A stretch of DNA of 32,000 nucleotides from Trichlorobacter lovleyi SZ (GCF_000020385.1 NC_010814.1:2490001-2522000), one strand, 5' to 3'. Positions 3,219-23,578 are shown, counted from the first letter of the stretch. The notes: generated from the sequence alone by a model not told the origin. Numbers and translations: made by a program.

Positions 3219-3872
3219 TTATGCGGATGCTGTTTTTGTTGTTTTGAAAGAATCCGACTGCCGCCCAGCCTTAGCGCCGATGCCTCTCGATTTGATGTAG
3301 GACAGCAGCGCGGTCCTTGAAACCCCCATCATCCTCGCGATTGCCGAGCGGGCCACACCATACCCCAACAACTCTGCGATCTGCGCTTCCCTGCCATCCA
3401 GTTTGGATTTACTGAGACTGCCTCTTGGCCGCCCAAGCGGCTGACCGGCAGCCTTTCGCCTCGACAGGGCCTCCCTGGTTCGCCCGGAGATCAACTCACG
3501 CTCGACCTCTGCAGCCAACGAGAATGCGAACGCCAGGACCTTTGACTGAATATTATCAGTCAGCTCATATTGACCTTTGATAGCGTAAACCTTTACTCCT
3601 CGCTTTGACAGTATCGACAGAACCTCCATCACCTCCAGCATACTACGCCCTAGACGAGACAGTTCGGTTACGATCAACGTGTCGCTTTTCTTGAATCGCT
3701 CGATCAGCACGCCAAGTTCGCGCTTATCCCAACGAACAGTCCCCGAAACCGTTTCCGTGATGATCTCTACAGTTCCAAGTTTTCTATTGTTCGCAAAATC
3801 CAAGAGAGCGTAGCGCTGGTTCTCGGTATCCTGGCGTGCGGTCGACACCCTGATATAGCCAAAAATCGCCAT
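3219..3872 (-). CDS. serine recombinase (resolvase/invertase family)
   Basis: N-terminal catalytic signature AIFGYIRVSTARQD, the TELSRLGRS motif, and a C-terminal HTH (GVARSAIARMMGVSRTALLSYI). 217 aa is the typical small serine recombinase length. Confidence 0.95.
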   Translation of the reverse strand: MAIFGYIRVSTARQDTENQRYALLDFANNRKLGTVEIITETVSGTVRWDKRELGVLIERFKKSDTLIVTELSRLGRSMLEVMEVLSILSKRGVKVYAIKGQYELTDNIQSKVLAFAFSLAAEVERELISGRTREALSRRKAAGQPLGRPRGSLSKSKLDGREAQIAELLGYGVARSAIARMMGVSRTALLSYIKSRGIGAKAGRQSDSFKTTKTASA

Positions 3873-3931: not shown

Positions 3932-4246
3932 TTAATTGCATATTTTATTTATGTTTTTTATAGCCATATGATGACAACAAAAAACGGACATTTTTATAAT
4001 CAAAACATCCGTACGCTTCTGCCCAAACCCTCCGGTGACAATGCTGAGTATGCCGATAATGATTGATATAATAAGGTAACCAACCGGTTCAGACAGGCTA
4101 CAGTTTTCGCACATAAAAAGCCCGGCAATGAAGCCGCCAGACAGGTAGGCTACGACAAATGAAACCGGAATAAATTGTGCCGGTGGTCGGAGAAGCCAGC
4201 TTGTTATCGTTTTTTCCGTATACCTGTTTAACGGAATGTCCTTCAA
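3932..4246 (-). CDS. small hypothetical membrane protein (2 predicted TM helices)
   Basis: 104-aa ORF with two hydrophobic helices (FIPVSFVVAYLSGGFIAGLFM and VGYLIISIIIGILSIVTGGF). It is AT-rich and compositionally distinct from the upstream genes. Confidence 0.4.
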   Translation of the reverse strand: MKDIPLNRYTEKTITSWLLRPPAQFIPVSFVVAYLSGGFIAGLFMCENCSLSEPVGYLIISIIIGILSIVTGGFGQKRTDVLIIKMSVFCCHHMAIKNINKICN

Positions 4247-4282
4247 TGGTGCTAAAGATCCCTTGGGTGGCTGGAGGCATGT

Positions 4283-5044
4283 CTACTCACAATTTCTCAC
4301 CTCAATAATCTTCCGGCTGTCAAGATCAAGAGCCACCAGGCTACCAAAGCCCACATGCCCCTTGTCGAAGCAGCCGTTATCAAGTTTTATATGATGGGTT
4401 GCCAGAGAGTTCCGAATAGTATGAATATCTGTCATGGTATGACCAACCACCAGGGTTCTGTTTCCGATCATTTCAGGTACCACTTTATAATCTCTGTCCC
4501 ATAGCCTGAAAAAACCAGGCGTGTCGTTAACCGGATCAGCTACTCCGAAATGCAAACCTGCATGTACAAACACGTAGTCATCTGTAGTGAGTATCGTCGG
4601 CAGCATTGAGAGAAATGTGATGTAGTCTTGAGGAATATCTGTTGGCTTTTTTGCACCAAACTGCTGCAGGGTTGCCCAGCCACCATTGCCGTACCAGAAT
4701 TGCCAAGAATCTTCACCGCGTGCAACAGCATTCAACATCATTTTTTCATGATTGCCCAACAGCGGCTGGATAGAGATATCAGTCTGTACATAGAGCTGCA
4801 TCAGATAATCCAGCACCCCCTTGCTGTCAGGTCCGCGATCAATATAGTCGCCAAGCAGGTAGAGGGTATCCCCCTCCACAAGTTCCAGCACATCTTCAAC
4901 CATTCTGCGCAACGTGCGGAAACAGCCATGAATATCCCCAAGCACAAACCTGCGACCAGCTATCGGATTACTGAACCTGCCTGCCCAAGGTTTTTGGGGA
5001 GGAGCCGAACTATCAACCATTGAATTGTTCCCTGCGCTGGTCAC
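4283..5044 (-). CDS. PPP-family metallophosphoesterase (lambda phosphatase / PrpA / ApaH-like)
   Basis: Canonical motifs GDIHGC, GDYIDRGPDS and GNHE are present. The alternative start ATG at 5020 has an AGGGA SD. Either start overlaps the upstream HD gene (32 or 8 nt). Confidence 0.9.
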   Translation of the reverse strand: MTSAGNNSMVDSSAPPQKPWAGRFSNPIAGRRFVLGDIHGCFRTLRRMVEDVLELVEGDTLYLLGDYIDRGPDSKGVLDYLMQLYVQTDISIQPLLGNHEKMMLNAVARGEDSWQFWYGNGGWATLQQFGAKKPTDIPQDYITFLSMLPTILTTDDYVFVHAGLHFGVADPVNDTPGFFRLWDRDYKVVPEMIGNRTLVVGHTMTDIHTIRNSLATHHIKLDNGCFDKGHVGFGSLVALDLDSRKIIEVRNCE

Positions 5045-5585
5045 GGCAAAAATACTGACTATACCCGTCTATCTTCTGCTTGAGACGTGCCGCCAATGCA
5101 GGGCTTGCCTCATGCAATGCATCATAAATCTGTTGTGCCTCTATCTGGTAGCTTTGCATCTTCTCTGTTGTCCAATGTTTGGGTGGCGGTTGCAGGTTGG
5201 TGATCCGATCAGCCAGCTTGACCATCCAGACCTCTCTGGGCTGCTGTTGGATACGTGCCAGACTGTCGGCCATTTTTTCGTATTTGGGCAGGTCATCATG
5301 CTTGGTCAGGGCCTGAACGCCGTTTGCCACAGCCTCGCCAAAAAGATCCTGTACCTGGCTGTACCCGAACGACGTATCCTCTATAACATCATGCAGCAAG
5401 GCACACTGGATTGCCAGATTGCCATCCAGACCAGCCTCAACCGCTAGTGCCGCCGTAACCTCCATGCTAACCATGGTCAGGTGAGTGAGGTAGGGTAGTT
5501 CTGTGCCGGGAACCTTCTGGCCATTGTGGGCATTTGCGGCAAACAGCAGTGCTTTGATATAGCTTTCCTGTGACCAAGGTGTCAT
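5013..5585 (-). CDS. stand-alone RelA/SpoT-type HD hydrolase (small alarmone hydrolase-like, (p)ppGpp pyrophosphohydrolase family)
   Basis: Motifs AHNGQ, PYLTHL, HDVIEDT and KLADRITNL occur in SpoT hydrolase-domain order. 190 aa with no synthetase or regulatory domains. SD GGGAGG lies upstream. Confidence 0.85.
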   Translation of the reverse strand: MTPWSQESYIKALLFAANAHNGQKVPGTELPYLTHLTMVSMEVTAALAVEAGLDGNLAIQCALLHDVIEDTSFGYSQVQDLFGEAVANGVQALTKHDDLPKYEKMADSLARIQQQPREVWMVKLADRITNLQPPPKHWTTEKMQSYQIEAQQIYDALHEASPALAARLKQKIDGYSQYFCRDQRREQFNG

Positions 5586-5643
5586 TGACGATACCTCCCG
5601 AAAAAGTTAGATGAACAGACCGTTACGTTGATCATGGTAGAGG

Positions 5644-7020
5644 CTACAAAAACCCGAACGTCTTTTTCTTTGCCCCGCCTTCAGAAAGCCACTGCTTGAT
5701 CTCATCATACTGGCCCCCTTCGTTGGCAAACTCCGCATAGTTCTTGGCGGTCTCAGCCCATTCGCGGGTAGTTGGTTTGACGGAAGCCAGGACAGCCTTC
5801 AGATCCTGCATGGTAATATCCCGTTCAACTCCTGTTTCAAGCACCTCATACAGTACCCGTTCTGCTGCGGTATCAGCCAGGGCAGTCAGATCAGCTCCTG
5901 AAAACTGTGTCGTCTGTTCAGCCAGCCAGGCAAAGTCAAGTCCGCTATGGGGACGTCCTTTGAAGGCCAGTTTCAATACCGCCTCACGCCCGGTCTGATC
6001 AGGCGGCGGGACAAAGATCAGTTGATCAAACCGTCCGGGTCGCTTGAAGGCACTGTCCACATCCCAAGGGGCATTGGTGGCGCCGATGATCAGCAGGTCA
6101 CAGTTGTCGGTGTCTGCACCGTCCATCTGGTTCAAAAAGGCGTTGATGGTGCCGGTAATGGCGGCATTACGGGAGAGATCACGCTTGCGGCCCAGGGCAT
6201 CAACCTCATCAATAAAAATAATGGCCGGACGGTGTTTGCGAACGGTGTCAAACAGCCGGAACACGTTGCGCTCACTGTTGCCTACATACATGTTGAGGAT
6301 ATCGTGCAGACCGATGCAGAAAAAGGCAGCCTGACACTCACCGGCTATGGCCCGGGCAAACCAGGTCTTGCCGCAACCGGGCGGGCCGTACAGCAGAATG
6401 CCACCTCCGGCGGTTGCGCGATACTTTTTAAACAGCTCCGGGTTTTTAAACGGCTGGATGATCTTCATTCGGGCGGTTTTTTTCAGATCATCCATGCCGC
6501 CCACATCGCTAAAGGTGATGGTTCTGTCTCCCGGAAGCAGCGGTGCAAAGTCAGACAGTTCTTCCAGCCGGTCAGCGTTGCGCTGCTTCAGGCGAATGCG
6601 GGGCTTGATGCCGTGACGCTCAAACAATGCCAGCATCGGCTCGGGATCATAGCCCGGCAGTTTCTCCAACATCTCAGACAGCGCATCCTCGGCCTCTTCA
6701 GCCCGGTCATCCTCAAGATAGGCACGGATCAAGGCAGGGTAAAGCTTAAGCAGTGTGGCATCAGGCAGATCCTTTGCCGAGGCCAGGGTTGTCAGATACG
6801 GGATAGCCTCATCCCTTCTGCCTGATTCAAGCCAGGCAATGGCCAGATCCAACAACAGCCAATGTTCCGAATCTTCCAGGTTGGAGCAAAGCGGTTCCAG
6901 TACGGCACAGGCCTCGCTCCAGCGACCGGCCTCGGCAAGTTTGGTCGAATACAGGCGGACAAGATCACGGTTGTCCGGTGTGGCGTTGTAGGCAGCCTTC
7001 AGCAGGGTCAGTTCATCCAT
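5644..7020 (-). CDS. TPR-fused classical-clade AAA+ ATPase (FtsH/Cdc48-like unfoldase module, no protease domain)
   Basis: Walker A GPPGCGKT, pore loop MYVG, Walker B IIFIDEVD and SRH GATNAPWDVDSAFKRPGRFD are present. The N-terminal ~150 aa are TPR-like. The ATG at 7020 has an AAGGAG SD; the track ORF extends to a TTG at 7047 that overlaps the upstream stop. Confidence 0.9.
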   Translation of the reverse strand: MDELTLLKAAYNATPDNRDLVRLYSTKLAEAGRWSEACAVLEPLCSNLEDSEHWLLLDLAIAWLESGRRDEAIPYLTTLASAKDLPDATLLKLYPALIRAYLEDDRAEEAEDALSEMLEKLPGYDPEPMLALFERHGIKPRIRLKQRNADRLEELSDFAPLLPGDRTITFSDVGGMDDLKKTARMKIIQPFKNPELFKKYRATAGGGILLYGPPGCGKTWFARAIAGECQAAFFCIGLHDILNMYVGNSERNVFRLFDTVRKHRPAIIFIDEVDALGRKRDLSRNAAITGTINAFLNQMDGADTDNCDLLIIGATNAPWDVDSAFKRPGRFDQLIFVPPPDQTGREAVLKLAFKGRPHSGLDFAWLAEQTTQFSGADLTALADTAAERVLYEVLETGVERDITMQDLKAVLASVKPTTREWAETAKNYAEFANEGGQYDEIKQWLSEGGAKKKTFGFL

Positions 7021-7043
7021 AGGTTGTGCTCCTTTAAGTACGA

Positions 7044-8471
7044 TCAATCCGTATCTGCCGCCAGTATCCGCAACCCAAAGGCGGTTGCAAGACTGCCACC
7101 TGCCAGAGCCAGTACCGCAAGCAATGGACTAAAGGGAACTAGTGCAGGCAGCCAGCGCAGCAGATCAATCACGGGAATGTAGGCCAGCAGGCAGACAACG
7201 ACTGCGCTAAAGGCGGTACTAAACGCTACGTCCCGAACAAGCGGCAGCAGCACCAATAGCAACCCGAACCAGCAGAGCAAGGCATTTGCATAGAACTCGC
7301 CGGAGGGGTCAAGCAGCGTCACCAGCGCCGGTATCAGACCACCGCCAATCATAAATAACAGGTTAGGGTTATGCAGTTGTTCCCTGATCCATTCGGCCTT
7401 AAAGCCATTGCTGGCTGCTGTCTGGTAGGCATGCCATAGCAGGGCAATGCGACTGACACTCCAGTCAAACATGGCTCGGTAGAAAAAGAGCGCCCAGGTA
7501 AACAACAGACCGATCAGCAGTGCGGCAGCAACACCCACGCCAAGCCCCAGTACCCAATGCTCTCCTTTCAGATTATCGCCTATCCAGACCAGCTCGAGAT
7601 TGCAGACTACATAAAAGTACAGCAGCCGTTTGTTACGCATGGTGTCTTTGGCAAATCCCAGGCCGGCAAGTCCGGCAAGAAACAGCACACCGTCTTCGGC
7701 AACCAGTTTAGGCAGGTGGGGGAACCATCCGGCTGTCAGCAGGTAGCGCAGCAGGGCATGACCCAGGGTGAGTACCCCGGCAATCAGACAGGTCAGCTGA
7801 AACCGGCTGGTAAGTGCACGGTACTGCTGTTGGGCCTCGGTGCTGGTGGGGCTACTGCCAAGCAGCCGTTGGAGAATGTTGGCAGCCTTTGAACGACTTT
7901 TTTCCATCTGGGCGTGCAGATACAACAATTCTGCATGATCAGGCTGCTGCGCCAGCCCCTCCAGAACCATCTGCCGGGCCTGGTCGTTTTTATCCATAAT
8001 CCAGAGAATACTAGCATGGTGCGCAAGATAGTCGATATCCAGCGGATCAAGGGAGAGCGCCTTAAGAATTGACGACTCTGCAGCGTTCAGGTCGTGGCGG
8101 TTATAGTGCGTTACTGATTGCAGATACCAGATTGTCGAGCAATCAGGATCAAGCTCAAGGGCTGCTTCTGCGGCAGCAAGGGCTTCACGGTACAGTTCCA
8201 GATGGTTTAAGAGGGATATCTGTACAGCACGCAGTGTGGTGCTGCCAGGATTGGCTGCCAGACCATGACGCAGGATGCTCTGCGCCTTGGCAAATTCTTC
8301 CCGCTGTACGGCTGCTTCAGCCGCGTAACTGAAAATCTGCGGCTCTGTTGCCGGGTCTGCAAGATGGGGTTGAGCCAGCTTCAGCAACTCTTCATAACGC
8401 TCCAGTTCGTACAGCAGCCGCAGCCTGTGCAGCAGGTTGTCGTCTCCATCTGTTATCTTTTCATGTTCCAT
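7044..8471 (-). CDS. TPR-headed polytopic membrane protein (paralog 1)
   Basis: N-terminal ~215 aa are TPR-like repeats and the C-terminal ~255 aa hold multiple hydrophobic helices. Its N-terminal motif is shared with the 8479-9870 ORF and the 11105-11281 ORF. Confidence 0.8.
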   Translation of the reverse strand: MEHEKITDGDDNLLHRLRLLYELERYEELLKLAQPHLADPATEPQIFSYAAEAAVQREEFAKAQSILRHGLAANPGSTTLRAVQISLLNHLELYREALAAAEAALELDPDCSTIWYLQSVTHYNRHDLNAAESSILKALSLDPLDIDYLAHHASILWIMDKNDQARQMVLEGLAQQPDHAELLYLHAQMEKSRSKAANILQRLLGSSPTSTEAQQQYRALTSRFQLTCLIAGVLTLGHALLRYLLTAGWFPHLPKLVAEDGVLFLAGLAGLGFAKDTMRNKRLLYFYVVCNLELVWIGDNLKGEHWVLGLGVGVAAALLIGLLFTWALFFYRAMFDWSVSRIALLWHAYQTAASNGFKAEWIREQLHNPNLLFMIGGGLIPALVTLLDPSGEFYANALLCWFGLLLVLLPLVRDVAFSTAFSAVVVCLLAYIPVIDLLRWLPALVPFSPLLAVLALAGGSLATAFGLRILAADTD

Positions 8472-8478
8472 TGGCTAC

Positions 8479-9870
8479 TCAATCATCCTGCTTCGCCCGT
8501 CTATATTGCCGCCAGGCCCGATAGAGGGCAAACAGGTACAGGATAAACAGCAGTAGTGGGCGCCTGTGGGGTTCCTGATGCCCGATTATTGAAAAGAAGA
8601 TCAGCGGCAGAAATGTCCAGGCAGCAAGCAAGAAGCTTGCAACCGCAGCCCTTTCAAATGATTGTATGCCACTATAGCGGTAGAGCAGTGGTGCGCTGGT
8701 CATGACAAACAGCAGATGTGGTGGCGGATTGTAATACATGCCAAACAAAAACAGGGTGGGCAACCCGGCCAGAGCCAGCATCGGCAGAACCAGGCGAGGC
8801 GGCAGCCATTCAATCAGCAGATCAGTAAAACGTCCCTGACGGATGGCAATTTGTGCCTGCTGCTTTTTGTTTTGCAGATCTTCAGCACTATCACTAAGCC
8901 AGGCACGAAATAAAACCAGTGCAACCAGTATAACCACCCCAAGCACTGCTCCCATCGGGATGGTGCCTGGCCCGAACGTACCGTTCCAGTAGCTCACAAG
9001 ACTGAACACCATGGTTGTAGTAATCAGGTGGCCACCCAGATGGTAATAGGTCGAACGGAGCATGAATAGGCCGGATGCCAGTGCCAGCGGATATGCTGCT
9101 TCAAACAGCCAGCTTGCAGCCGGATGGGGACGCAGAAAACCGGCCAGACCGGTTGCCAGGATCAGCAACAGCCAGATCGCCAGATCACGGGGGAGTTGCC
9201 GGGCAAACAGATTGTACAGCTCTTGCCTGTCAGTGTCTGTGGGGTCGAGGGCGAGTGCCTGCCTGAACAACTTCAGTTTGGCTCGTATCCCTCTTGACGT
9301 AACGGCCTTGACCGTCAGGGCATCGACATATCCGGGGTTATCGCGCAAGACCTGCTCTGCCAGCTCATTGGCTCGCAATGTGTTGTCACGCAGGCACTCA
9401 ATATGGGCCAGCAGGGTCAAGTGTCCGGGGTCATCCGGCAGCAGGGCCAGGGCTGCGTCTGCTGCCTCCTTTGCCTCGCTGTAGCGCTTAAGCTTCATCA
9501 GGCAAAAGGCCCGGTGATGGTGGGCATCCGGATTTTCCGGGTTTAGGGCCAGTGCCGCCTCTGCTTGTTCCAACGCCTTTTCGTACCTGCCGCAAAAGCC
9601 GAGAACCGAGGCATGGCAAAGTATCAGGTCTACGCTGTGCGGATGGCGTAACAACCCGCGTTCAACCAGATGAAGCGATTCTTCATGGCGCTTCAGTTGC
9701 TGCAGGGCGCTAACGCAGAACCGGTAGCCGGTTTCAGGTCCATCCAGACGGTCAAGCAACGGCATCAGCAGACGTAGAACTTCTTCGTAGCGCCCCAAAT
9801 CATGCAGCAGCCTCGCTTTTTCTACTTCAGAGGGCACATTATCAGCAATTCTGTGGGGTGTCGCATTCAT
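8479..9870 (-). CDS. TPR-headed polytopic membrane protein (paralog 2)
   Basis: Same architecture as 7044-8471: ~215 aa of TPR followed by multiple TM helices. There is only a 7-nt gap to the downstream gene. Confidence 0.8.
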   Translation of the reverse strand: MNATPHRIADNVPSEVEKARLLHDLGRYEEVLRLLMPLLDRLDGPETGYRFCVSALQQLKRHEESLHLVERGLLRHPHSVDLILCHASVLGFCGRYEKALEQAEAALALNPENPDAHHHRAFCLMKLKRYSEAKEAADAALALLPDDPGHLTLLAHIECLRDNTLRANELAEQVLRDNPGYVDALTVKAVTSRGIRAKLKLFRQALALDPTDTDRQELYNLFARQLPRDLAIWLLLILATGLAGFLRPHPAASWLFEAAYPLALASGLFMLRSTYYHLGGHLITTTMVFSLVSYWNGTFGPGTIPMGAVLGVVILVALVLFRAWLSDSAEDLQNKKQQAQIAIRQGRFTDLLIEWLPPRLVLPMLALAGLPTLFLFGMYYNPPPHLLFVMTSAPLLYRYSGIQSFERAAVASFLLAAWTFLPLIFFSIIGHQEPHRRPLLLFILYLFALYRAWRQYRRAKQDD

Positions 9871-10033
9871 GCAGGCAGAATACTCCTTATTATAAGGGAA
9901 CGAATGAACATACGCCTATCATGAGATTATTTCCACAGGGGTTAGACAAATAGACATCAGGTACAGATATTGATATCGAAAAAAGAAACTGTTTCTTGAC
10001 GATGAGGAATGAGACGGACAAACGGTCATTTTA

Positions 10034-11092
10034 CTACCGCTCCGGGTGAGACCCGCAGGAACAACCGCTGATAGCCCGGAAGAAGATCCAGGTCATCAGT
10101 GCGGTCATGGCACTTACTATCACGATATCAGGAATCGGCAAGCCAAATTGTCTCCCGGCATAATTGACGGCGCTCTGCAGCAGCCAGGCACTGAGCACTG
10201 CTGCCAGGGGCATGCCCATCCATCCGTCACCCCTCATGCGGCAGATGCAGGCACCGCAAAAACTGAGGGAAATCGTATAGGCCAGCGGGCCGATATACCA
10301 GAGTACTGCGGCAATGACGAGAAACATCCAGATGCTGCCGGCATACGAAGGAGCAATCAACGCAAAGTAGGGACGTAATGGCAGAAAGCAAAGTAGCAGC
10401 AGCAACAGTGCCAGTCCAAACGAATAACGCAAACGGACTCCAGCTGGCCGCAGGACACGCTGGTCTTGCGCCGCCTGCGGGGTTCCACAGGCGTAATCAC
10501 TGCGATAGCCTGCCAGAATCGGCCCTGCATCCGCAACGGCGTCAGTATCCAGTAGCCGTTCTTTACCTGACTCATTCAGGTAATCAACGATCCGGTCGAG
10601 CAGTTCATCACCGCTGCCCAACGTCTCTACCACGTTACTGATGCTACAAAGGTACCGTTCTATCCCATCGTAGTACAGGGTAAGGTCGTGACCGGTGGTC
10701 ACCCCGTTGGTGGTATGATGAGTTATCCAGATCCGCCCGATCTTGGAGTGGGAGAACAGTTGCGGAGGTGACTCATTGTGGCTGAAGAGCACGTCGTCAC
10801 CTGCTACGGCAACATGATAGCGATCAACTGTGCCGCGCATCCGCCTGGTGCGGAGAACATACATCATCACCGCCAGGGCAAGCCCGATACACAATAGCAG
10901 TAGCCCTGCCCAATTGGAGTGGGCAACGATGACATAGCCACCCATGAGCGCCGTACCGACGCCAACGCAGAAGAACAGCATCGCAAAAGCATCAGGGGTA
11001 CGCGGCGGCGTTTGCACGGTAAGGGTTAAGCCGGTGTCATCCTGCTGAACCAGCAACGAGTTTGTTTTATCGAATGTTTGAGTATCAGGCAT
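10034..11092 (-). CDS. polytopic membrane protein, in frame with the upstream 58-aa TPR-like stub across a TAG
   Basis: 352-aa ORF with an N-terminal TM pair, a soluble ~130-aa middle and a C-terminal TM bundle. There is no convincing SD before its ATG. It is in the same frame as 11105-11281. Confidence 0.6.
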   Translation of the reverse strand: MPDTQTFDKTNSLLVQQDDTGLTLTVQTPPRTPDAFAMLFFCVGVGTALMGGYVIVAHSNWAGLLLLCIGLALAVMMYVLRTRRMRGTVDRYHVAVAGDDVLFSHNESPPQLFSHSKIGRIWITHHTTNGVTTGHDLTLYYDGIERYLCSISNVVETLGSGDELLDRIVDYLNESGKERLLDTDAVADAGPILAGYRSDYACGTPQAAQDQRVLRPAGVRLRYSFGLALLLLLLCFLPLRPYFALIAPSYAGSIWMFLVIAAVLWYIGPLAYTISLSFCGACICRMRGDGWMGMPLAAVLSAWLLQSAVNYAGRQFGLPIPDIVIVSAMTALMTWIFFRAISGCSCGSHPER

Positions 11093-11104
11093 AGTATGAC
11101 GTTT

Positions 11105-11281
11105 CTATCTCTGCAGGGCAAAAACAGACAGGCGGTATCCTGCCTCCGGCTCATCCTGGCTAGCAATCTGGGGCAGCAGCAGTTTTAGCAGTTCTTCATT
11201 CCGTCCCAGTTCGAGCAACAATCGGGCTTTGTCAATATCGGAGTGCATGTCGTCAACAGTGCTGGTGATTGTGGTTTCCAT
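11105..11281 (-). CDS. 58-aa TPR-head stub paralogous to the N-termini of the two TPR-membrane proteins
   Basis: My translation is METTITSTVDDMHSDIDKARLLLELGRNEELLKLLLPQIASQDEPEAGYRLSVFALQR*. Compare VEKARLLHDLGRYEEVLRLLMPLLDRLDGPETGYRFCVSALQQ in the 463-aa protein. AGAAGGA lies upstream. The ORF is below the track's length cut-off. Confidence 0.5.
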   Translation of the reverse strand: METTITSTVDDMHSDIDKARLLLELGRNEELLKLLLPQIASQDEPEAGYRLSVFALQR

Positions 11282-11299
11282 AGGGTGAGCAATCCTTCT

Positions 11300-11854
11300 C
11301 TACAATGCCGGGCTGATGTTTTTTATGAGTGCAGCAGGAATTGTAACTCCAACCATAATCCCCCAGGCCAGATCCAACCAGAAAAAGGAGCCAACCTGCC
11401 CAAGGCGGATCAACCCCACCACCGGTACAACCAGCAGCTTGCCGAATAAGCTGATCTCACGGCTTTTGGTGGCCTGCCACAGGGAGTCGGCATCACCACC
11501 ACTGGGAAAGGCGCAGGCCCCCACCGCCCATGCCAGCCAGCACAGGAAAGGCCCGGCAATCTCTTCATGCTGTTTGGTCATTAATTCGGCCTGTAGTAAC
11601 AGCCCGACGCCGATGCCAAGCAATATAGCAGCCAGAGAGCAGACCACAAACGGCGCAACACTGACGATAATATGCTGCCAGGCTGTATCCGGCTGTTCAT
11701 GCAGCACATACCCGCGTGGATTACCAAGCCGCAGATAACAGACCTTATGCACCCGGACACCGGACAGACGGCAGGCCAGTGCGTGTGCGTATTCATGCAC
11801 CGGCACGCCAGGAATGGTCATTATGTTGAAAGAGAGAGAGACTAGTGTACCCAT
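11300..11854 (-). CDS. membrane protein with an HExxH zinc-peptidase motif (putative membrane zincin)
   Basis: HEYAH lies near the N-terminus (PVHEYAHALACR) and is followed by 3-4 hydrophobic helices. An AAGAGG SD is present, with a 12-nt gap to the upstream gene. Confidence 0.6.
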   Translation of the reverse strand: MGTLVSLSFNIMTIPGVPVHEYAHALACRLSGVRVHKVCYLRLGNPRGYVLHEQPDTAWQHIIVSVAPFVVCSLAAILLGIGVGLLLQAELMTKQHEEIAGPFLCWLAWAVGACAFPSGGDADSLWQATKSREISLFGKLLVVPVVGLIRLGQVGSFFWLDLAWGIMVGVTIPAALIKNISPAL

Positions 11855-11866
11855 GACAACCTCTTG

Positions 11867-12943
11867 TCAGTTTATCACTGCATGCCGTTGCTCAACGTAC
11901 CCCATAATACCTGCAGCAATACAGACCGTCAGTATAATTGGACCCGAGCTACTGAAAAATGGTAGCGGTATCGGCCAGAAAAACAAGCCAACATTATAGA
12001 GCACATGTAACATGGCAAGCCCAATTACCGCCCCTCCCCAGATAACCAACAGGTAGGTCATGGCCTCCAGGCCTGCCTTGCGTACAGTGCGAACCACCAT
12101 GAATGCCAATAGCGCAAAGCTTAGTATGACCAGGGCCATGCCAACCAACCCGTACCAGGAACCGATCACCGCAAAAGTGTACTCACCATTATTTCCCTGA
12201 CAGAGCAGTTGTTCAAAAGCCGGGGCCGTATCTATGCAGACCTGTGCCGCGCTTTCCTGAGTGGGCATGGATGGGGTGCTACCAATCATACCGCCGGTCT
12301 GCATGGACTGCAGTGCCAGGACGTGAGGAGAGCCCGGTTCACTATGGGTCAGTATCCGCTGCACATGATGCAGTCGATATGGTCGGGCAACAATTGCTGT
12401 TCCCAGAAAGACAACCGTACCAATCAGCAGAAACAGCCCGGCCAAGGGGCGACGGTACAGGCACAACAATACGCTAGCCAACAAGATGCCGACAAGGGCA
12501 AGCCCCAGATTGCCATGGCTGACAACCAGCCCAACTATCAAAAGCCCACCTAGTACCAGCATAACCTTGGCAGTCCAGCCGCATTGGCCGGCATTGCTGC
12601 AGAGTATACAGCCGCTTAAAAACAGAAGGCAGGCAAACAAATCACTGCCTGTGGCCACGGCATAGAGCTCTATGCTCGGAAACAGGCTTGGCAACATGGC
12701 TAAAGTAAATGCGGCAGAAACGAGAATCCAACGTATATTTGGCTGGGCTTGCAAGCGACTATACTTTATCGCACCCCCGACAAGTGCGACTGCAATCAGG
12801 GCAACAGCGTACACCAGTGGCGGTGCATTCTCCGGCAGGTCTGATGCATAGGCAAACGCCCTGCAGACAAACACAAACCCGGTCAATAGCATCAGTACAC
12901 TTAATCCAACATACCAGCCCGCCTGAGTTTTAAGATAGTTCAT
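11867..12943 (-). CDS. divergent SEDS-family (FtsW/RodA/SpoVE-like) polytopic membrane protein
   Basis: The C-terminal half aligns by eye to RodA. YTFAVIGSWYGLVGMALVIL matches DFIFAVLAEELGLVG, and IPLPFFSSSGPIILTVCIAAG matches VPLPLVSYGGSALIVLMAGFG. About 10 hydrophobic segments over 358 aa. SD is AGGGAGGG. Confidence 0.7.
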   Translation of the reverse strand: MNYLKTQAGWYVGLSVLMLLTGFVFVCRAFAYASDLPENAPPLVYAVALIAVALVGGAIKYSRLQAQPNIRWILVSAAFTLAMLPSLFPSIELYAVATGSDLFACLLFLSGCILCSNAGQCGWTAKVMLVLGGLLIVGLVVSHGNLGLALVGILLASVLLCLYRRPLAGLFLLIGTVVFLGTAIVARPYRLHHVQRILTHSEPGSPHVLALQSMQTGGMIGSTPSMPTQESAAQVCIDTAPAFEQLLCQGNNGEYTFAVIGSWYGLVGMALVILSFALLAFMVVRTVRKAGLEAMTYLLVIWGGAVIGLAMLHVLYNVGLFFWPIPLPFFSSSGPIILTVCIAAGIMGYVEQRHAVIN

Positions 12944-12979
12944 GATTTACCCTCCCTAATTATCTGGTCGTGCTTTACT

Positions 12980-14776
12980 TCATGTACCCAGCAGCACCGG
13001 GCATTCCTGCAGCAGTTCTCTGAAACCATCAATCATCCGGCGTGACCAGGCTGGTGATTCGATCATCCGGTGGTACTCATCTGAATTTTCACGCCTATTA
13101 TACTGCTGCCAGCGAATTTCACGCAGTCGTTCACTGCTTACGCTAACTGTTAGATGCCGCAGAAATGCTTCCAGCACGGCAGTGCATTTCTCAGAAGGGT
13201 CGTTATTATGTGGCCCTTGGTGCTGCATGAGATAAAACGGATCAGGATCAGCAACATCATCAGAAAGCCTGATTTCAAAGGTTGATAATGATTGGCCGCT
13301 TGCCCTGTCCCGGATGGAAAAAATATGGGAACCGTAGAACAGGCAACTGCTGGTGTAGCCACCCACGCAATGCTGCATCTTGCTGCCTTCATCCTTCAAA
13401 TGCCAGGGGGTGGTGAGCGGTACGACCATCAGGTCGTTATAGGGCCAGGGACTATCGATAAAAGAGGGCCAGTGTTCCCTATCATCGAGGCTGCCCTCTG
13501 CCAGTGATTCATCCAACACCTGTATCTGCCATTGATGCCAATGGCGAGACAAGGCGGTGATCCGCAGGATGGATACCTGCTGCAGGGCAGCTGTGGCATC
13601 GCTTGCCGGCATATCAACCTGTACAGCCCATTCGTGATAGGCTTTTTCAAAATCATGCAGGTTGCTGATGTCAGTCATAGTGATGTTGTACTTTTCCAGC
13701 CTCGCTGGTATGCGTTGGTAACCTTCCTTTACCAGATCGTTGAGACCGCTCTGCAGTATTGGTGAGCGTTTGCGGTTCCATTTCTCATCAAGGCTATCGT
13801 AGATCGGCAGCACCCATTCGTTAAAACACTCCCAGTCTTCAGCGGTTCTGGGCCAGAAGTCCGGCCTGATCAGATCAAGAATTTTGGGCAGCTTGTTAAG
13901 GTGACACAGCCACTGATTACCGATCAGATCAAGGTCTTTCTCAGTCAGGAATTTAGCTACGGTCTTTGAGCAGCGGAAGTAGTCGGCAACTGCGGTGGGA
14001 AGAGGATTACCCAGGTCAACCCCATGTTGCAGCCGCCGGGCCATATGCTCCGGTTCTTCAGCGCAAAAGGTACTGATTAACAGTGGGTAGGCCTGCAAGG
14101 CCTGTCTGCGATTACGGCAGACCTTCTCAAGGGGATGCAGCAGATAGTTGTAGTGTTGGAAGAAAAACAGTCCAGCTGTTGGATCAAGATGCACCAGCTG
14201 CAACCGTTCCTGATCCAGTGAAGCAGCAAAGGAAACCAGTCCCTCCTGAAATTGAGAGATGTACGGTTGCGACAAACTACGCACCGATGCGTCGGTCAAC
14301 AGGTACTGATGGTTCCAGCCTCTATCTGCATGGATGGTCTCTTTTACTATGTCTTCAGCAATCTCACTGCAGATTTGTTTAAAGTCACCGGCATCACCGG
14401 CACTGATCCAGCCGAACATCACGGCCAGGTGTGACAACACCTTCCTTGCTTGCTCAAACCTGGCTTCATCAAGCCGTTGACAGATCCGCCCCAGATCACA
14501 GTAACTGAGAAAAGAGCCGTTACTGCGGAAGAAGATTCCCCAGACAGCACCGGACTCAAGCTCCAGCCAGAGCATCCGGCCAGAGACACGGGTATCAAAA
14601 CAGATGCCGTCTTCACGCAGCTTGGTGGTGGGCAGGGCAAAAGCTTGGCGATAACCGGTACCGCTAGACAAGGTAATGGTACTTGCAGGTGCTGTTTGCG
14701 GTGCCTCCATGTGGCTGGCAGCTGTTATCGGAACGTCACTGCCCAGCAGGGCTTGTATTTCATCATGGGAGAGCAT
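12980..14776 (-). CDS. PcfJ-like domain protein
   Basis: The C-terminal motif LKDEGSKMQHCVGGYTSSCLFYGSHIFSIRD matches my recollection of the PcfJ-like family signature (EG..M.HCV..Y...G...I.SIR). The N-terminal ~430 aa are unassigned. Confidence 0.6.
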   Translation of the reverse strand: MLSHDEIQALLGSDVPITAASHMEAPQTAPASTITLSSGTGYRQAFALPTTKLREDGICFDTRVSGRMLWLELESGAVWGIFFRSNGSFLSYCDLGRICQRLDEARFEQARKVLSHLAVMFGWISAGDAGDFKQICSEIAEDIVKETIHADRGWNHQYLLTDASVRSLSQPYISQFQEGLVSFAASLDQERLQLVHLDPTAGLFFFQHYNYLLHPLEKVCRNRRQALQAYPLLISTFCAEEPEHMARRLQHGVDLGNPLPTAVADYFRCSKTVAKFLTEKDLDLIGNQWLCHLNKLPKILDLIRPDFWPRTAEDWECFNEWVLPIYDSLDEKWNRKRSPILQSGLNDLVKEGYQRIPARLEKYNITMTDISNLHDFEKAYHEWAVQVDMPASDATAALQQVSILRITALSRHWHQWQIQVLDESLAEGSLDDREHWPSFIDSPWPYNDLMVVPLTTPWHLKDEGSKMQHCVGGYTSSCLFYGSHIFSIRDRASGQSLSTFEIRLSDDVADPDPFYLMQHQGPHNNDPSEKCTAVLEAFLRHLTVSVSSERLREIRWQQYNRRENSDEYHRMIESPAWSRRMIDGFRELLQECPVLLGT

Positions 14777-14784
14777 TATAAAAA

Positions 14785-14815
14785 AACCTCCTCAGGTGGT
14801 GTACCTGAGGAGGTT
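14785..14815 (-). terminator. rho-independent terminator ending module B; its 3' arm contains the SD of the PcfJ-like gene
   Basis: Perfect 13-bp stem AACCTCCTCAGGT/ACCTGAGGAGGTT with a 5-nt loop. On the minus strand it is followed by T7, then ATA, then the ATG at 14776. Confidence 0.8.
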
Positions 14816-14916: not shown

Positions 14917-17442
14917 TTACTTCACCACAATCCGGTCAGCGGTTACGCTGCCCGTCCCAATGGTTAATACACCCTGCAGCGTAGTCACACCGCTGGTTGT
15001 CCTGCTGAAGTCAGCTTTATACCCTCCCTGCAGGTTCAGCTTCTTATTAATTACTGTACTTAGCGATAACGTATCTTCCAGCAGGTAAACCAATGTTGTA
15101 TCTGTTGTTGATGCTGCTGCATAGGCATCTGCAAGGCTACCATAACCATTACTGCCTATCTTGGCCTTGGGTGCCAGAGTAAAGGTGGCAGTAACTCCTT
15201 TTGCGCTATCCATAGCCACAGTACACGCATCCAACCCTAAACAGGCCCCACCCCACCCGCCAAAGGTGGACAGGGAGTCGGACATCTGCAAAAGGGTGAC
15301 GTTTTGTCCATAGGGGAAGGTGGTGGTACAGGTTCCACTGGTACAGGTAATACCCACTGGTTTTGTACCCAGCGGGTCGCTGGTGACGGTTCCCCCGCCG
15401 GTCCCAGCTACGGATACCGAAAGTACGGGTGGTAAAGGCAAACCGTTGATCAACACATCATCAATCCTCCAGCTGCCCATGGTTCCATAATAGTGAAAGC
15501 GTACCATCACATTGCTTTTACCTGCCGCAACTGACGTCATATTCAAGCTTATGCTCTCAGTGAAGCTCCCTTGCGTTTTCTTCAAAATATTTACCCATGG
15601 ACCTGCAGGGCCATTCTCGCTGATATCAACATCCGCGGTTGATGCATTTAACACGGACTTAAACGCCAAGTTAACAGAACCATAGTTACGAAGATCAAGA
15701 GCAGGTGTTCTGAGTTCAATATCAATAAAGGCATCTGGTTGGTCTCCATAGTTACTACCCCGTGCAAATCCGCCAGTACCACCTGTGTAGTTGGTTCCCA
15801 AAGAAGTACCAAACCACCACGTACCAGCAGGGTCAGAAATCCTTGTCCAACCTGTTGGTACACTGCTTGATTCAAATGCCTCGCTTAATGCGACAACAGA
15901 GGTAAATGTTGCCGTTATCGAAGTGTCTGACAGCATAGTAACGGTACAGGGACCAGTTCCAGTACACCCGCCTCCTGACCAACCGGTAAAGGTAGAGCCA
16001 TTATCAGCTGTGGCAGTCAACGTTACTACGTCTCCTGTTGCGTAACCATTTGTGCCTGTGGTGCCATTCCAGGCAAAAAGACCGCCATCTGAGGCGGTTA
16101 CAGTGCCTGTTCCTGCTCCAGTTTTAGAAACCGACAGGCTAAAATCCTTAGGATCGTTTGGCACAATACCGGTGATGATAGACTGGTTGCTCCCGCTCCA
16201 GAAATAGCTGCCAGTAGTAAAGCCGTTATATACGTCATAATAGGCATCATACCACCCGTCCCATCCAAGATTCAGATGCACCTTACTGGTAATGCCGTCG
16301 GTTTGATACCCATCAGCAACAAAGGCATGAGCACCGATGGTCGAGTTAACTGAACTAAACATCACCGGTCTTCCTGGTACTGCATCAAATTCATTCTTAA
16401 ACAGATCAAACCAGGTGGAGGACGTATAATCGTTCCTAATGTGCTTGGCTTGAGTGGGTTTATAATTAAAATACGTTGGAAGAGTATAAGGAGTAACGCC
16501 AGCACCAGAATCAGAACAGCCATAGTCCATATAAACCGCTATCCCAACATCTGACATAAGTTTGGCCACTGCATTGATTTGTGTGCTTGTACTGAAAGAA
16601 GAGAGGGCCGATGGCATATTGTTCCAGTCATACACACTTTGAGAAAAATCAGCCGATAATGTAGTGCCATTCCACGCATATGAGTTACTGCCAACTCCTT
16701 TGTCTGGCCAGCGCCAATAGCGGAGTATCTGGGACCAGGCAGTAGCCACACAGCCAGTCAAGGTATGGGCGCAGGTTCCAACGTCACCAGTACCTGCTGG
16801 GGTCAGATAATTATAATAGGGAGACTGCCCCCATGTGGTTGTGAGTAAAGGGGCTACTTGGGCAGTCGCATATACTATACTGGATGCTGCCTTGGAGGTT
16901 GTAGCTTCAGGGGTTGCAGGCTCAGCAGCGTAGAATTGCCATGACACGCCAACCGGAGTTTTTTCAGAAGCAATACTTTTGTTTGCGCCTACCTGTTCCT
17001 TTAGTTTTTGAATGCTTTTATGGGTGGAAAACATCTCAGGAAGGATCCATGATTCTACAGAATCAGGCTGCGTTACCCGTGATGGTTCAAAGCTGGACCT
17101 GTAAGAGAAAAGCACTACCGGCGTAAATTCATCATGATACGGAATAAGGAGGTAACCACTTGGTTTGACCGAGACATTATAGGCTATCGGTTCACCTTCA
17201 TGCTCTACAAGCTGAATCTTTGTGACGACCGGTTTTGGATCATTGGCCCACAGCCCAAATCTCTCAACTTGATGACGAAGAAAGTTTTGTGCCACTCGCC
17301 TCACCACCACTTCTGCAACAGGTGCAGCAATAACGTTGAGCGGGCAGACGAGTATCCCCAAAATCAGTACTAATGATATGCCATAAATTGTCTTTGTGGA
17401 CATGCTTTCCCCTGTCATGGCAAACATGTTGTGCTTAGTCAT
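14917..17442 (-). CDS. secreted C10-family (streptopain-like) cysteine peptidase with prodomain, B-repeat-like domains, a MAM/choice-of-anchor-J-like domain and a shared C-terminal tail
   Basis: Catalytic Cys context TGCVATAWSQILRYWRWP and His context GAHAFVADGY, with an upstream WGQSPYYNYLTP. The signal peptide starts more plausibly at Met14 (ATG at 17403). GWSGGGC/GGWGGAC repeat modules are present. Confidence 0.88.
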   Translation of the reverse strand: MTKHNMFAMTGESMSTKTIYGISLVLILGILVCPLNVIAAPVAEVVVRRVAQNFLRHQVERFGLWANDPKPVVTKIQLVEHEGEPIAYNVSVKPSGYLLIPYHDEFTPVVLFSYRSSFEPSRVTQPDSVESWILPEMFSTHKSIQKLKEQVGANKSIASEKTPVGVSWQFYAAEPATPEATTSKAASSIVYATAQVAPLLTTTWGQSPYYNYLTPAGTGDVGTCAHTLTGCVATAWSQILRYWRWPDKGVGSNSYAWNGTTLSADFSQSVYDWNNMPSALSSFSTSTQINAVAKLMSDVGIAVYMDYGCSDSGAGVTPYTLPTYFNYKPTQAKHIRNDYTSSTWFDLFKNEFDAVPGRPVMFSSVNSTIGAHAFVADGYQTDGITSKVHLNLGWDGWYDAYYDVYNGFTTGSYFWSGSNQSIITGIVPNDPKDFSLSVSKTGAGTGTVTASDGGLFAWNGTTGTNGYATGDVVTLTATADNGSTFTGWSGGGCTGTGPCTVTMLSDTSITATFTSVVALSEAFESSSVPTGWTRISDPAGTWWFGTSLGTNYTGGTGGFARGSNYGDQPDAFIDIELRTPALDLRNYGSVNLAFKSVLNASTADVDISENGPAGPWVNILKKTQGSFTESISLNMTSVAAGKSNVMVRFHYYGTMGSWRIDDVLINGLPLPPVLSVSVAGTGGGTVTSDPLGTKPVGITCTSGTCTTTFPYGQNVTLLQMSDSLSTFGGWGGACLGLDACTVAMDSAKGVTATFTLAPKAKIGSNGYGSLADAYAAASTTDTTLVYLLEDTLSLSTVINKKLNLQGGYKADFSRTTSGVTTLQGVLTIGTGSVTADRIVVK

Positions 17443-17486
17443 ATATTCTGCCTCAAATATGAAGAATGGCTAATACTTTCATTTTA

Positions 17487-23400: not shown

Positions 23401-23495
23401 GCCGGCAACTGGATAGTTGCAGCATAAGTAGATACACTGCATAAAATGCCACATATAAAAGTCACTAGAAACTTGGCAAACAATGATCTATTCAT
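17487..23495 (-). CDS. 2002-aa secreted multidomain surface protein
   Basis: The order is a signal peptide, then two DUF1566/Lcl-like repeats (GFNDWRLPN). Next come a choice-of-anchor-D-like domain, a carboxypeptidase-regulatory-like domain and ~400 aa I could not assign. Then follow degenerate Asp-box propeller-like repeats (SFDGSTW, NNGGTWGS), CARDB-like domains, a second choice-of-anchor-D-like domain, a B-repeat and the shared tail. Confidence 0.88.
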   Translation of the reverse strand: MNRSLFAKFLVTFICGILCSVSTYAATIQLPATGQTKCYDTAGAEMACAGTGQDGEIQAGKAWPDPRFTDNGNGTVTDNLTGLEWSKNASPAGVWQTWLGALNYVKYLNSQNYLGFNDWRLPNVLELDSLINIQYSYSASPISIPFTNFNSRYFWTSTTDVSSSGSGYYAYYGSVYSEHMSSTGKSNYVYAWPVRNSTIIEKSAISLYKTGQTKCYDDVANEVNCQGTGQDGEIQAGKAWPNPRFIDNGNNTITDGLTDLVWTKNASPSSERLSWQDALDYIKKINSQNYLGFNDWRLPNRNELKSIIDLQQKAPSLPNAHPFVNLDLSYYLYWSSSSPTLFQFVSQLDDEIRGSASSMNFWYESFVYSYYKVYKNGVWPVRGGSVKKLGSVVLFPSKEVFANQYIEVTTSKTLTVSNTLATAASITGASITGPNALDFSLGDGCSGSTLASKSSCNISVNFTPHSCGTQSATLNVVTDQGTLTAALSGSSCGVGTATVGGVVRDATTKLPVSGASITVGGSGPYTTDTGGHYLAENLTSGSLSLVAAKSGYETARANVTLAPLQSAQKDISLTPATTGFRVTSVTSKYSSGKPYYFLPKEYIGNQTVDVTFTVDVDWDGKTPNYIKFITPRGTYNEYTFGSFAPVSKTFNITTEFDPCTTLSVAAVDFAGNSSPIVNADFMVAKRFNPNADPPMLQFVDEGSVFSYTNKYSYGENDKQLSLANLNVSIANYAVPILFGDSFLLKLLPSVAFEYSSTDGGKYRVAWIDQTQGNLFDKEYAKNRDFKKFKRNFDDYVKKYQGKGMPKIGFGSQSASFYPFIDIKTEFNPESCSTADSGWDVKGDVGFALDYSIEKTKQSMFVIPAVVPIPVPYYLKGKFHFTGDVGFNALGMGLAQEDFEGSLNLNPAVSGTLGVGVDGNVGVEGTLTGTLNLGLTLPTNDNQLKFSADLTATAYLFNFKYNYVIGKGTWCLYGSCSLGEDTIATPGLLEQIPRTYLKAAVPADFKSSPSYTVKQVATETQSYSVASAPIMSATFPVSSASLSSNGSNVNLLWLKDNTARTLMNRTMLQHSSFDGSTWSTPVAVADNGTADFNPSSLTFSDGSMVTAWEDMKTTLPDTALLEDVVPLMEIAAAVYNPTTKTWGTAVRLTNNGSLERTPKLAGKDKNNLLLTWIANSQNDLVGSATKPNSLYAATFNGTAWSTPQLLASIPNAIKRYSAVYDGTTANIVLSLDTDANSSTLEDLELYRLTNNGGTWGSLTRLTTDSVIDDNPQLALDSNNNVVMTWVRGNELSSVVNFDFANRTVIRAEDNYSSTLADYKQAQATDGKVAVIYADNSEDSTSDLFGLFYDPVFKVWGEPKQLTFDAETEQWPSIAFLGTDTIISVYNRKLLINPDGTPTTGALTDLYMLKHTMGDDLALEAGSLISDPRNPAPGTAVTLSAVAQNLGDKVAQNIPVTFYNGDPANGGNSIGTATITGPFKPGEVQTVSVSWTIPAGAAPYTVYAVIDPNATIDTLNRANNVISSSLAQPDLSIRNITWEKLAATKYSMIVTVANIGGTASAASTVTLHNGSSTGPVITNLTVPTLARFASVDLTYTWDASAIVQPYYTVVATVDEANSIAESDELNNSYTVVLGGNLQDISVTPNPLSGTANIGQTSTALLTIRNAGTAPLNVTGITKSGTDAAAFTVAPSGDNACASMTPTIQAGLSCTVGVSITPTALVTKTATVTVASNDPDTPSVAVPVTVTGVDSGAPVISAFVIPATVKTKTIPFTTLTASDNVAITGWMVTETSTPPAAGDAGWLATKPTGYAVSSNGFKVLNVWAKDAAGNVSAPVQATTAVTIPTLTTTIYGIGTVSSVPAGISCSNATCTALFDDATNVTLTASSSSIVTFGGWGGACTNLSGTCALSMTADKTVTATFNLAPKAKIGNTGYANFADAYAAAGNNAVVMLLEDSLTLYSTINKPLTLQGGYMADYTRSTNGYTVLQGILTVGTGSLTADRIVVK

Positions 23496-23578
23496 CCCGG
23501 CCCCATTTTCATATGTGCTATTTTTTTAAATACAAAAACACCTGAAACAACAAAATGTCATTCTTCCCGCGCCTATAT

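Follow-up and report, generated by a model that had tools for sequence, protein, structure and literature searches.

Within a 32,000-nucleotide (nt) stretch of the Trichlorobacter lovleyi SZ chromosome (NC_010814.1:2490001-2522000; hereafter the window, with positions counted from its first letter), a block of ten co-directional open reading frames (ORFs) occupies positions 4283-14776 on the minus strand. We read this block, with slightly more confidence than doubt, as a layered composite on a variable, probably mobile island, at the core of which an AAA+ protein (C) and a membrane protein headed by tetratricopeptide repeats (TPRs; D or E) would form a membrane-tethered unfoldase pair. Our confidence is high in the linkage of C with D/E, and moderate to low in the mechanism proposed below. 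The ten-gene block is a mosaic, in which C with D/E is the sole deeply conserved unit and would be the ancient core. The ten encoded proteins match ACD96044.1-ACD96053.1 exactly (GenBank; contig of 3,917,761 base pairs, bp). An earlier reading of the window from sequence alone (the sequence-only reading) had rightly seen co-directional minus-strand genes, but counted eleven ORFs where there are ten, corresponding to the ten GenBank genes listed below.

J, 12980-14776, minus strand: 598 amino acids (aa), soluble; Pfam PcfJ match of 37 bits; first gene of the block
I, 11867-12943, minus strand: ten transmembrane (TM) segments predicted; weak SEDS match
H, 11300-11854, minus strand: 184 aa, four TM segments predicted; DUF3267 'zincin' with HEYAH
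G, 11105-11281, minus strand: 58 aa; relic 5' copy of an E-type TPR-TM gene
F, 10034-11092, minus strand: 352 aa, five TM segments predicted; no match in Pfam, NCBIfam, PADLOC or PHROG
E, 8479-9870, minus strand: TPR head at about residues 15-210, then at least four TM segments predicted
D, 7044-8471, minus strand: TPR head, about seven TM segments predicted; immediately upstream of the AAA gene
C, 5644-7020 (ORF to 7047), minus strand: 458 aa; TPR_19, AAA and AAA_lid_3 domains
B, 5013-5585, minus strand: 190 aa; HD_4, SpoT/Mesh1-type
A, 4283-5020 (ORF to 5044), minus strand: annotated as 245 aa; PPP-family metallophosphatase

The sequence-only reading had placed the TPR-AAA+ protein and the TPR-headed membrane proteins together, and the pairing is indeed conserved across phyla. 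The comparison set comprised about 130 related loci (numbered with the prefix L), and a genome scan using one genome per species yielded at least 80 loci with AAA proteins 38-53% identical. Searching with D and E by phmmer matched an ORF in 64 of 88 loci, nearly always adjoining the AAA gene on the same strand. An adjacency test based on hidden Markov models (HMMs) looked for an ORF with TPRs and at least one hydrophobic segment beside the AAA gene, at loci with room on both sides. By this test the partner was present in 51 of 65 genome loci, compared with none of 72 control loci, which are viral contigs with other AAA relatives. The AAA and partner genes often overlap by 4 nt, and in non-proteobacterial phyla the partner mostly lies immediately downstream. 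Partner-positive loci carry titles from Acidobacteriota, Planctomycetota, Cyanobacteriota, Verrucomicrobiota, Bacillota, Bacteroidota, Pseudomonadota and Actinomycetota, in addition to the source organism, and the AAA/TPR-TM pair occurs in at least nine bacterial phyla. Two RefSeq records, one a Streptomyces plasmid and the other from Actinomyces, are annotated with an 'ATP-binding protein' followed, with a 4-nt overlap, by a 'tetratricopeptide repeat protein'. At each locus whose context was read, the AAA gene directly adjoins one for a TPR protein of about 440-500 aa: in Gallionella (with a 4-nt overlap), Limnohabitans, a seawater contig, L204 and L207. No third family was found to be conserved around the pair across phyla. 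Homologs of the block's genes also co-occur beyond the SZ genome, in other assemblies and metagenomes. The view that this gene set is undescribed held up: PADLOC returned only generic AAA matches, Pfam and NCBIfam offered no specific models, and neither the pair nor the cassette appears in the literature searched (on PcfJ, on modules combining AAA, TPR and membrane proteins, and on SAH neighborhoods).

Sequence analysis predicts that C is a soluble, single-ring, classical AAA+ ATPase. It matches Pfam AAA with 128.8 bits, plus AAA_lid_3, and retains intact Walker A (GPPGCGKT), Walker B (DEVD), a YVG pore loop, sensor residues, arginine fingers and an RPGRFD motif. Peptidase_M41 is not matched in Pfam, the chain stops about 50 aa past the AAA lid, and TM prediction found no hydrophobic or TM segment; the sequence-only reading was right about both the pore loop and the missing protease domain. 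The nearest solved structures are those of the p97/Cdc48 D2 domain (E ~1e-95). In the AlphaFold2 (AF2) model (mean predicted local distance difference test score, 84.5), an eight-helix TPR-like N-domain (residues 1-135) is joined by a flexible linker to the AAA fold, and the C-terminal end has three extra helices and then a disordered basic tail ending in FGFL. The C-terminal extension, PST.EW..ARNY..YAN.GG.YD...YL, is kept family-wide in all phyla. Together with an adjoining gene for a TPR head and four to seven TM segments, it provides annotation signatures for the family. A terminal GF motif was considered as a universal docking tail and rejected, being restricted to the proteobacterial branch. 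An HMMER search of the 58-aa C tail against 1.84 billion representatives gave 247 weak matches, mostly fragments, and was underpowered. Searches with C returned full-length relatives 44-54% identical, plus a large branch of about 317 aa without the N-domain; in this AAA-only branch the partner is likewise present, directly upstream.

Two further features of the surroundings of the pair were recorded. In the AAA-only branch (L182, L184, L186, L189, L192 and L202), a protein of about 125 aa with four TM segments, ending in RYxCxxCVEY, is encoded immediately upstream of the TPR-TM gene, making a three-gene operon. It was considered as a split-off N-domain of C and rejected, as it has four TM segments and is unrelated to any protein of the window. 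Separately, genes for heat-shock chaperones or regulators occur within 10 kb of the pair in three unrelated lineages (hrcA-grpE-dnaK in L092 and L093; dnaK-grpE in L177, Actinomyces oris; hrcA 4-5 kb upstream in the Streptomyces loci L043, L068, L082 and L083), a frequency above a rough expectation and noticed post hoc.

Both D and E match TPR families in Pfam, E at E-values down to 3e-14. The two are paralogous in their TPR heads only (26% identity, E 2e-9), so that their description as membrane paralogs in the sequence-only reading applies to the heads and fails for the dissimilar membrane parts. The first TM segment of E begins at about residue 230 with no hydrophobic segment before it, and TM prediction found none preceding the TPR head of either protein. 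The TPR head should thus be cytoplasmic and able to meet the ATPase. No Pfam model covers the membrane part of D or E. Over 416 aa, D is 24% identical to the Gallionella partner in L008, whose gene overlaps its AAA gene by 4 nt, and in L011 and L092 the AAA gene is directly preceded by an E ortholog. G shares 48% amino-acid identity with residues 1-58 of E, and the DNA similarity runs beyond the G stop codon. Searching a set of 5.8 billion proteins with a TPR-TM alignment profile gained few true orthologs, the matches being dominated by generic TPR proteins.

Downstream of C, the protein B is a putative small hydrolase of the SpoT/Mesh1-type HD (alarmone-type) class. It scores 49.3 bits against HD_4 (cut-off 27.2) and matches TIGR00691 spoT_relA over residues 1-120 (E 1.2e-17); LLHDVIEDT, an HDxxED motif, is present, and LLHDVxEDT and KLADRxxN are conserved among B-like proteins. 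B-like HD_4 genes accompany the pair in three proteobacterial sub-lineages: the Geobacter type; L192, with 43% identity, in an operon that also holds an RDD protein; and L207, with 30% identity, where the gene overlaps the TPR-TM gene by 4 nt. This recurrence with the pair in proteobacteria marks B as an accessory and suggests a connection with alarmone or phosphate signaling. A matches Metallophos with 57.9 bits (cut-off 21.5) and carries GDIHG, GDYIDRG and GNHE motifs. It falls below the ApaH/PrpA equivalog cut-offs (NF001204, 60.5 against 176; TIGR00668, 34.2 against 222.85). Its best match, nearly full length, is the lambda NinI-like Ser/Thr phosphatase of PHROG 246 (E 5.7e-43), which makes the label of phospho-nucleotide hydrolase uncertain for A. 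A accompanies B throughout the Geobacter-type loci and nowhere else. Among other neighbors, UPF0227-type hydrolases recur in L010, L204 and L207, and FGE-sulfatase genes in L007, L092, L204 and L207. Genes for further hydrolases of nucleotides or nucleotide-derived groups lie near the core, namely HIT in L092 (8027-8497) and ADP-ribosyl-glycohydrolase in L005 (14567-15430) and L093 (7864-8712). HIT and glycohydrolase genes with HD_4 and a PPP-type phosphatase form a recurring theme of the Geobacter-type loci.

Quality control of membrane proteins in bacteria is thought to rest mainly on FtsH. Given these features of C, D and E, we propose a putative model in which the TPR-TM protein would tether or recruit the AAA+ hexamer at the inner membrane, or would itself be remodeled by the hexamer. 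ATP-driven threading through the YVG pore would then unfold or extract membrane or membrane-associated clients. As no protease is attached, the output would be remodeling, not degradation. Lineage-specific additions to this core would comprise a duplicated adaptor (D, E and the relic G), the membrane protein F, and B translationally coupled to A, with the PcfJ, SEDS-like and DUF3267 genes joining later.

Gene linkage, domain content, intact ATPase motifs and the modular gene content are shown, and membrane tethering, clients and the roles of B and A are, like the binding of C to D or E, points that we infer. Several observations weigh against this model. The genome scan gives a sample of at least 80 loci; in about one-fifth of the loci with room the partner is absent by the HMM test, and the gene order flips, since proteobacteria have the partner gene upstream and other phyla have it downstream. 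No similarity is detectable between the membrane parts of D and E, or between these and distant partners, their architecture alone being conserved. In the AF2 model of E, the TPR region is confident and the following helices are of moderate confidence, and a Foldseek comparison with the PDB retrieved TPR proteins only, leaving the membrane part unmatched. As for the enzymes, HMM searches found no B, A or UPF0227 near the pair in the 80 genome-scan loci listed, which come nearly all from other phyla, so the signaling link may be lineage-specific or incidental. The linkage of B and A in Geobacter-type loci could also reflect recent common descent alone.

A broader proposal, which we consider possible but rather doubtful, is that the pair represents a widespread, unnamed machine, a Cdc48-like unfoldase working on a TPR membrane adaptor of its own, that pulls proteins out of the inner membrane or remodels them. 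Its proteobacterial versions would be joined to an alarmone-type HD hydrolase, so that nucleotide signaling would be tied to envelope proteostasis or to a conflict response acting at the membrane. The T. lovleyi cassette would then be the most elaborate, mobile version, with exchangeable adaptor alleles setting client specificity. If true, such a second machine beside FtsH, protease-free, Cdc48-related, TPR-tethered and present in many phyla, would be a new player in envelope proteostasis or membrane-directed conflict, and a bacterial counterpart of the eukaryotic extractases Msp1 and p97.

Comparison of close relatives revealed that the gene content around the pair is modular. Copies identical to the window occur in several metagenome assemblies. 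L007, a second T. lovleyi assembly, keeps the gene order, with DNA 95-96% identical overall; between E and D it carries an insertion of an FGE-sulfatase gene and a toxin-antitoxin pair of the ParE type, and a 100% identical resolvase also follows the block. In L005 and L178 (AAA proteins 84% identical), the order is PcfJ, SEDS-like, MotA_ExbB-like, E, D, F and the AAA gene, followed by an ADP-ribosyl-glycohydrolase gene, two small genes, HD_4 and Metallophos. The 168-aa MotA_ExbB-like protein of L005 takes the place of H (DUF3267), and a ParM-like gene and an integrase come after the block. In L093 (82%) the genes are E, D, two for membrane proteins (one F-like), the AAA gene, glycohydrolase, HD_4 and Metallophos; the SEDS-like and DUF3267 genes are absent, and no PcfJ was seen within the portion of the contig examined. 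In L092 (84%), at the same chromosomal site as L093, the set consists solely of HIT, one E-type gene, the AAA gene, HD_4 and Metallophos. L179 (88%) has PcfJ, a frameshifted DUF3267 gene, an ISL3 transposase, a Metallophos paralog, D and the AAA gene, without E, B and I. Only an E-type gene and the AAA gene are kept in L011 (72%), followed by WD40 proteins. As the gene sets of L005, L011, L092, L093 and L179 differ in this way, the ten genes are not one fixed unit. The notion of a fixed eleven-gene system is to be abandoned accordingly, since PcfJ, the SEDS-like protein, DUF3267, F, a TPR-TM paralog and the phosphatase are each missing or replaced in relatives.

These comparisons also bear on a reading of all ten genes as one obligate, split FtsH-like machine, with proteolysis by the DUF3267 protein and a role in exclusion, defense or addiction, which we regard as very unlikely. 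Such a machine would fit the co-directional genes and their tiny gaps, the syntenic block in the second T. lovleyi assembly, the similar set in L005 and L178 beside an integrase and a ParM-like gene, and the terminator-like hairpins that flank the block. Further downstream lies a resolvase.

terminator-like hairpin, 14785-14815, minus strand: 13-bp stem and T run, between the upstream C10 peptidase gene and J
terminator-like hairpin, 4120-4142, minus strand: downstream of A
serine resolvase, 3219-3872, minus strand: Pfam Resolvase, E 1.1e-32; flanks the block, context only

The hairpin at 14785-14815 is likely the 5' boundary of the transcription unit, and that at 4120-4142 possibly its 3' boundary. 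They serve as a lead only, because the region holds 11 terminator-like sites against 10.4 by chance. From J to B the intergenic gaps are 36, 12, 18, 12, 163, 7, 23 and 58 nt, and the start of A overlaps the end of B by 8 nt. The sequence-only reading had given the gaps of 7, 12 and 18 nt and the single 163-nt gap correctly; those of 36 nt (J-I) and 58 nt (C-B) come in addition. The TTGA/ATG overlap that it placed at 7044-7047 does not exist. C homologs uniformly begin with MDELTLL, so that C starts at the ATG at 7020, in agreement with the annotation, leaving a 23-nt gap after D. In contrast to an obligate machine, only E-C-B-A remain in L092 and only E-C in L011, I and H are lacking in L093, E, B and I are lacking in L179, and a MotA_ExbB-like protein replaces H in L005; H, I and J were never seen near the pair in the 80 genome-scan loci listed. 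Furthermore, PADLOC gave only generic AAA matches (IetA, TRIP13 and mad8) for all ten proteins. The idea of a disassembled FtsH with an HExxH partner fails on its protease half, because the HExxH protein is not a conserved partner: H occurs only in T. lovleyi-type loci, is frameshifted in L179 and is replaced in L005.

J, I and H are late, separable additions to the cassette, not obligatory partners. J matches PcfJ (PF14284) over residues 404-526 with 37 bits against a cut-off of 25; the searched literature gives no function for the PcfJ family. J is present only in L001, L003, L005-L007, L178 and L179, and absent from L092 and L011. Its best relative on plasmids belongs to a type III CRISPR locus and has no other cassette gene types alongside. 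The score of I against the Pfam model FTSW_RODA_SPOVE (PF01098), 26.2 bits with a cut-off of 26.4, falls just under the threshold, and it reaches 36.3 against 337.5 for TIGR02614 ftsW. Solved RodA comprises ten TM helices, the seventh and eighth being separated by a large loop. The hydropathy profile of I, with ten segments and a gap of about 80 residues between the seventh and eighth, fits this topology, a fit that is not specific. Neither phmmer nor a profile of four orthologs retrieved RodA or FtsW among PDB sequences. No transpeptidase or penicillin-binding protein family was found among the cassette proteins and scanned flanking ORFs. I occurs only in window-identical contigs and in L005, L006, L007 and L178. 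H matches DUF3267 (PF11667) with 32 bits against 27.1 and has its HExxH motif, HEYAH, at residues 20-24; apart from the frameshifted copy in L179 it is restricted to T. lovleyi-type loci, with none in L092 or L093. F is likewise found only in Geobacter-type loci and evolves fast; its orthologs in L005, L093 and L178, about 31% identical, lie between D and the AAA gene.

Such turnover raises the question of whether everything beyond the C-D/E pair is chance cargo on a mobile island, in modules functionally unconnected with one another, which we judge quite unlikely. The flanks vary by locus, with insertion sequence (IS) elements, resolvase and integrase nearby; toxin-antitoxin and FGE-sulfatase genes have been inserted within the L007 block, and PcfJ is found in unrelated contexts. 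Mere chance does not readily account for the presence of B-like HD_4 genes alongside the pair in three distinct sub-lineages, one of them showing a 4-nt overlap, or for E-C-B-A staying together across three genomic settings.

Alignment of the SZ block with that of L007 revealed two patches of high divergence in C and D, within a surrounding segment that is 96-100% identical.

divergent patch against L007, 6642-6941: C N-domain
divergent patch against L007, 7242-8441: most of D

A, B, the resolvase and a large portion of the C ATPase domain are 100% identical in DNA, compared with only 74-89% for D codons 1-375 and C codons 1-150. Synonymous divergence (dS) is 0.26-0.97 in the divergent patches, 0-0.19 in the rest of C/D, and 0-0.07 in F, E, B and A. 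Diversifying selection on D was considered and rejected: dS is also high and the ratio of nonsynonymous to synonymous divergence (dN/dS) in the swapped segments is 0.14-0.46, a combination that recombination explains better. The TPR-type domains of D and C were thus swapped by recombination, with near-identity retained between and downstream of them, which in this single comparison fits domains that need to match.

The exchange of TPR domains as alleles between strains is also what one would look for if the pair were an abortive-infection or toxin-antitoxin-type module, with the membrane protein as a membrane-damaging effector, the AAA+ protein as its sensor or regulator, and B, A, HIT and the glycohydrolase in counter-signaling. 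We consider this explanation unlikely, though the proteobacterial copies do lie amid ParE, PemK and PIN toxins, Fic, IS elements, integrases and FGE-sulfatase genes. Moreover, pair copies sit beside transposases on Streptomyces linear plasmids, the distribution is patchy, and variable nucleotide- and ADP-ribose-hydrolase genes are close by. A nucleotide search of plasmids gave no match. Against a conflict module, 18 low-GC pairs from other phyla have ordinary neighbors, their 101 neighbor proteins being metabolic or envelope proteins with scattered single PADLOC matches only. PADLOC has no model matching D or E, the family is nearly absent from viral contigs (one 44%-identical AAA protein without partner, and no relatives of B), and dN/dS is below 1 in the swapped segments. 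The envelope-acting exclusion, defense or addiction function suggested in the sequence-only reading finds no support either, the neighbors of distant pairs being ordinary genes.

As a putative membrane-tethered unfoldase, the C-D/E pair is reminiscent of several known systems, from each of which it differs. It resembles FtsH in the classical-clade AAA domain of C, the YVG-type pore loop and the proposed site of action at the inner membrane, and TIGR01241 FtsH_fam is the top NCBIfam score of C (193.8 bits, cut-off 600). However, C has neither a TM anchor nor Peptidase_M41; a separate TPR-TM protein would supply the membrane attachment, and DUF3267, the HExxH protein nearby, is no conserved partner. 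Cdc48/p97/VAT and Msp1/ATAD1 offer the likeness of a protease-free unfoldase recruited to membranes through an adaptor or anchor for protein extraction. In contrast to Cdc48/p97, C has one AAA ring instead of D1 and D2 and a TPR-like N-domain instead of a double-psi barrel, and scores 185.9 against TIGR01243 (cut-off 802); the adaptor would be a bacterial TPR-TM protein without known relative, and there is no ubiquitin-like system. EccA of type VII secretion likewise joins a TPR-like N-domain and an AAA domain in one chain, but EccA is CbbX-like, C scores only 25.5 bits against TIGR03922 (cut-off 466), and no type VII secretion genes lie nearby. The AAA domain of C also matches IetA in PADLOC (E 1e-29) and IteA in NCBIfam (E 5.7e-27), as in Iet/Ite systems, where IetA works with the S8 protease IetS; here the NF042959 score is 94.8 against 510, the S8 domain is missing from all ten proteins, and a TPR-TM protein stands in as partner. 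MoxR-vWA ternary systems are defined by a MoxR AAA+/vWA pair and include an FtsH-type protein with two AAA domains (Kaur et al. 2020, PMC7159879). Their AAA+ chaperones occur with TPR, WD40, Sel1 and FGE-sulfatase-type proteins (PMC7159879), and similar ones lie near the proteobacterial copies of the pair. Membership was rejected, as the cassette proteins and the gene lists of related loci contain no MoxR or vWA.

The sequence-only reading had also placed the cassette on an island resembling a plasmid or an integrative and conjugative element next to a resolvase. The resolvase at 3219-3872 is real, and the source is the chromosome, not a plasmid. At the other end of the window, a 261-aa ORF with DUF4372 and DDE_Tnp_1 (IS4-type transposase; 30419-31204, minus strand) has a partial DDE profile and is perhaps truncated. 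Together with the resolvase, this transposase identifies the region as a variable island. Neither tRNA genes nor Rfam families were found in the window. Between A and the resolvase lie a 104-aa ORF with two predicted TM segments (3932-4246) and a 60-aa ORF (4098-4280), both on the minus strand; the former is 99% identical in L007, and the latter is called as a gene in identical metagenome contigs.

Upstream of the block, at 14917-26116 on the minus strand, a 2002-aa protein with Lcl_C, CARDB and ASH/Ig-like domains is encoded between two paralogs of the Peptidase_C10 (streptopain) family. These are 841 and 845 aa long, share 69% identity and each carry an InlB-B-repeat-like domain. The genes resemble a cluster for secreted or surface proteases, distinct from the cassette; in L007, PcfJ is preceded by other genes, for a 212-aa ORF and a Sel1 protein. 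Further upstream, a 758-aa ORF without a confident family (27902-30178, minus strand) precedes a zf-HC2 anti-sigma-like protein of 230 aa, which overlaps a 295-aa ORF with a weak PHROG sigma-factor match (26146-27722, minus strand). The latter two may be regulators of the protease cluster.

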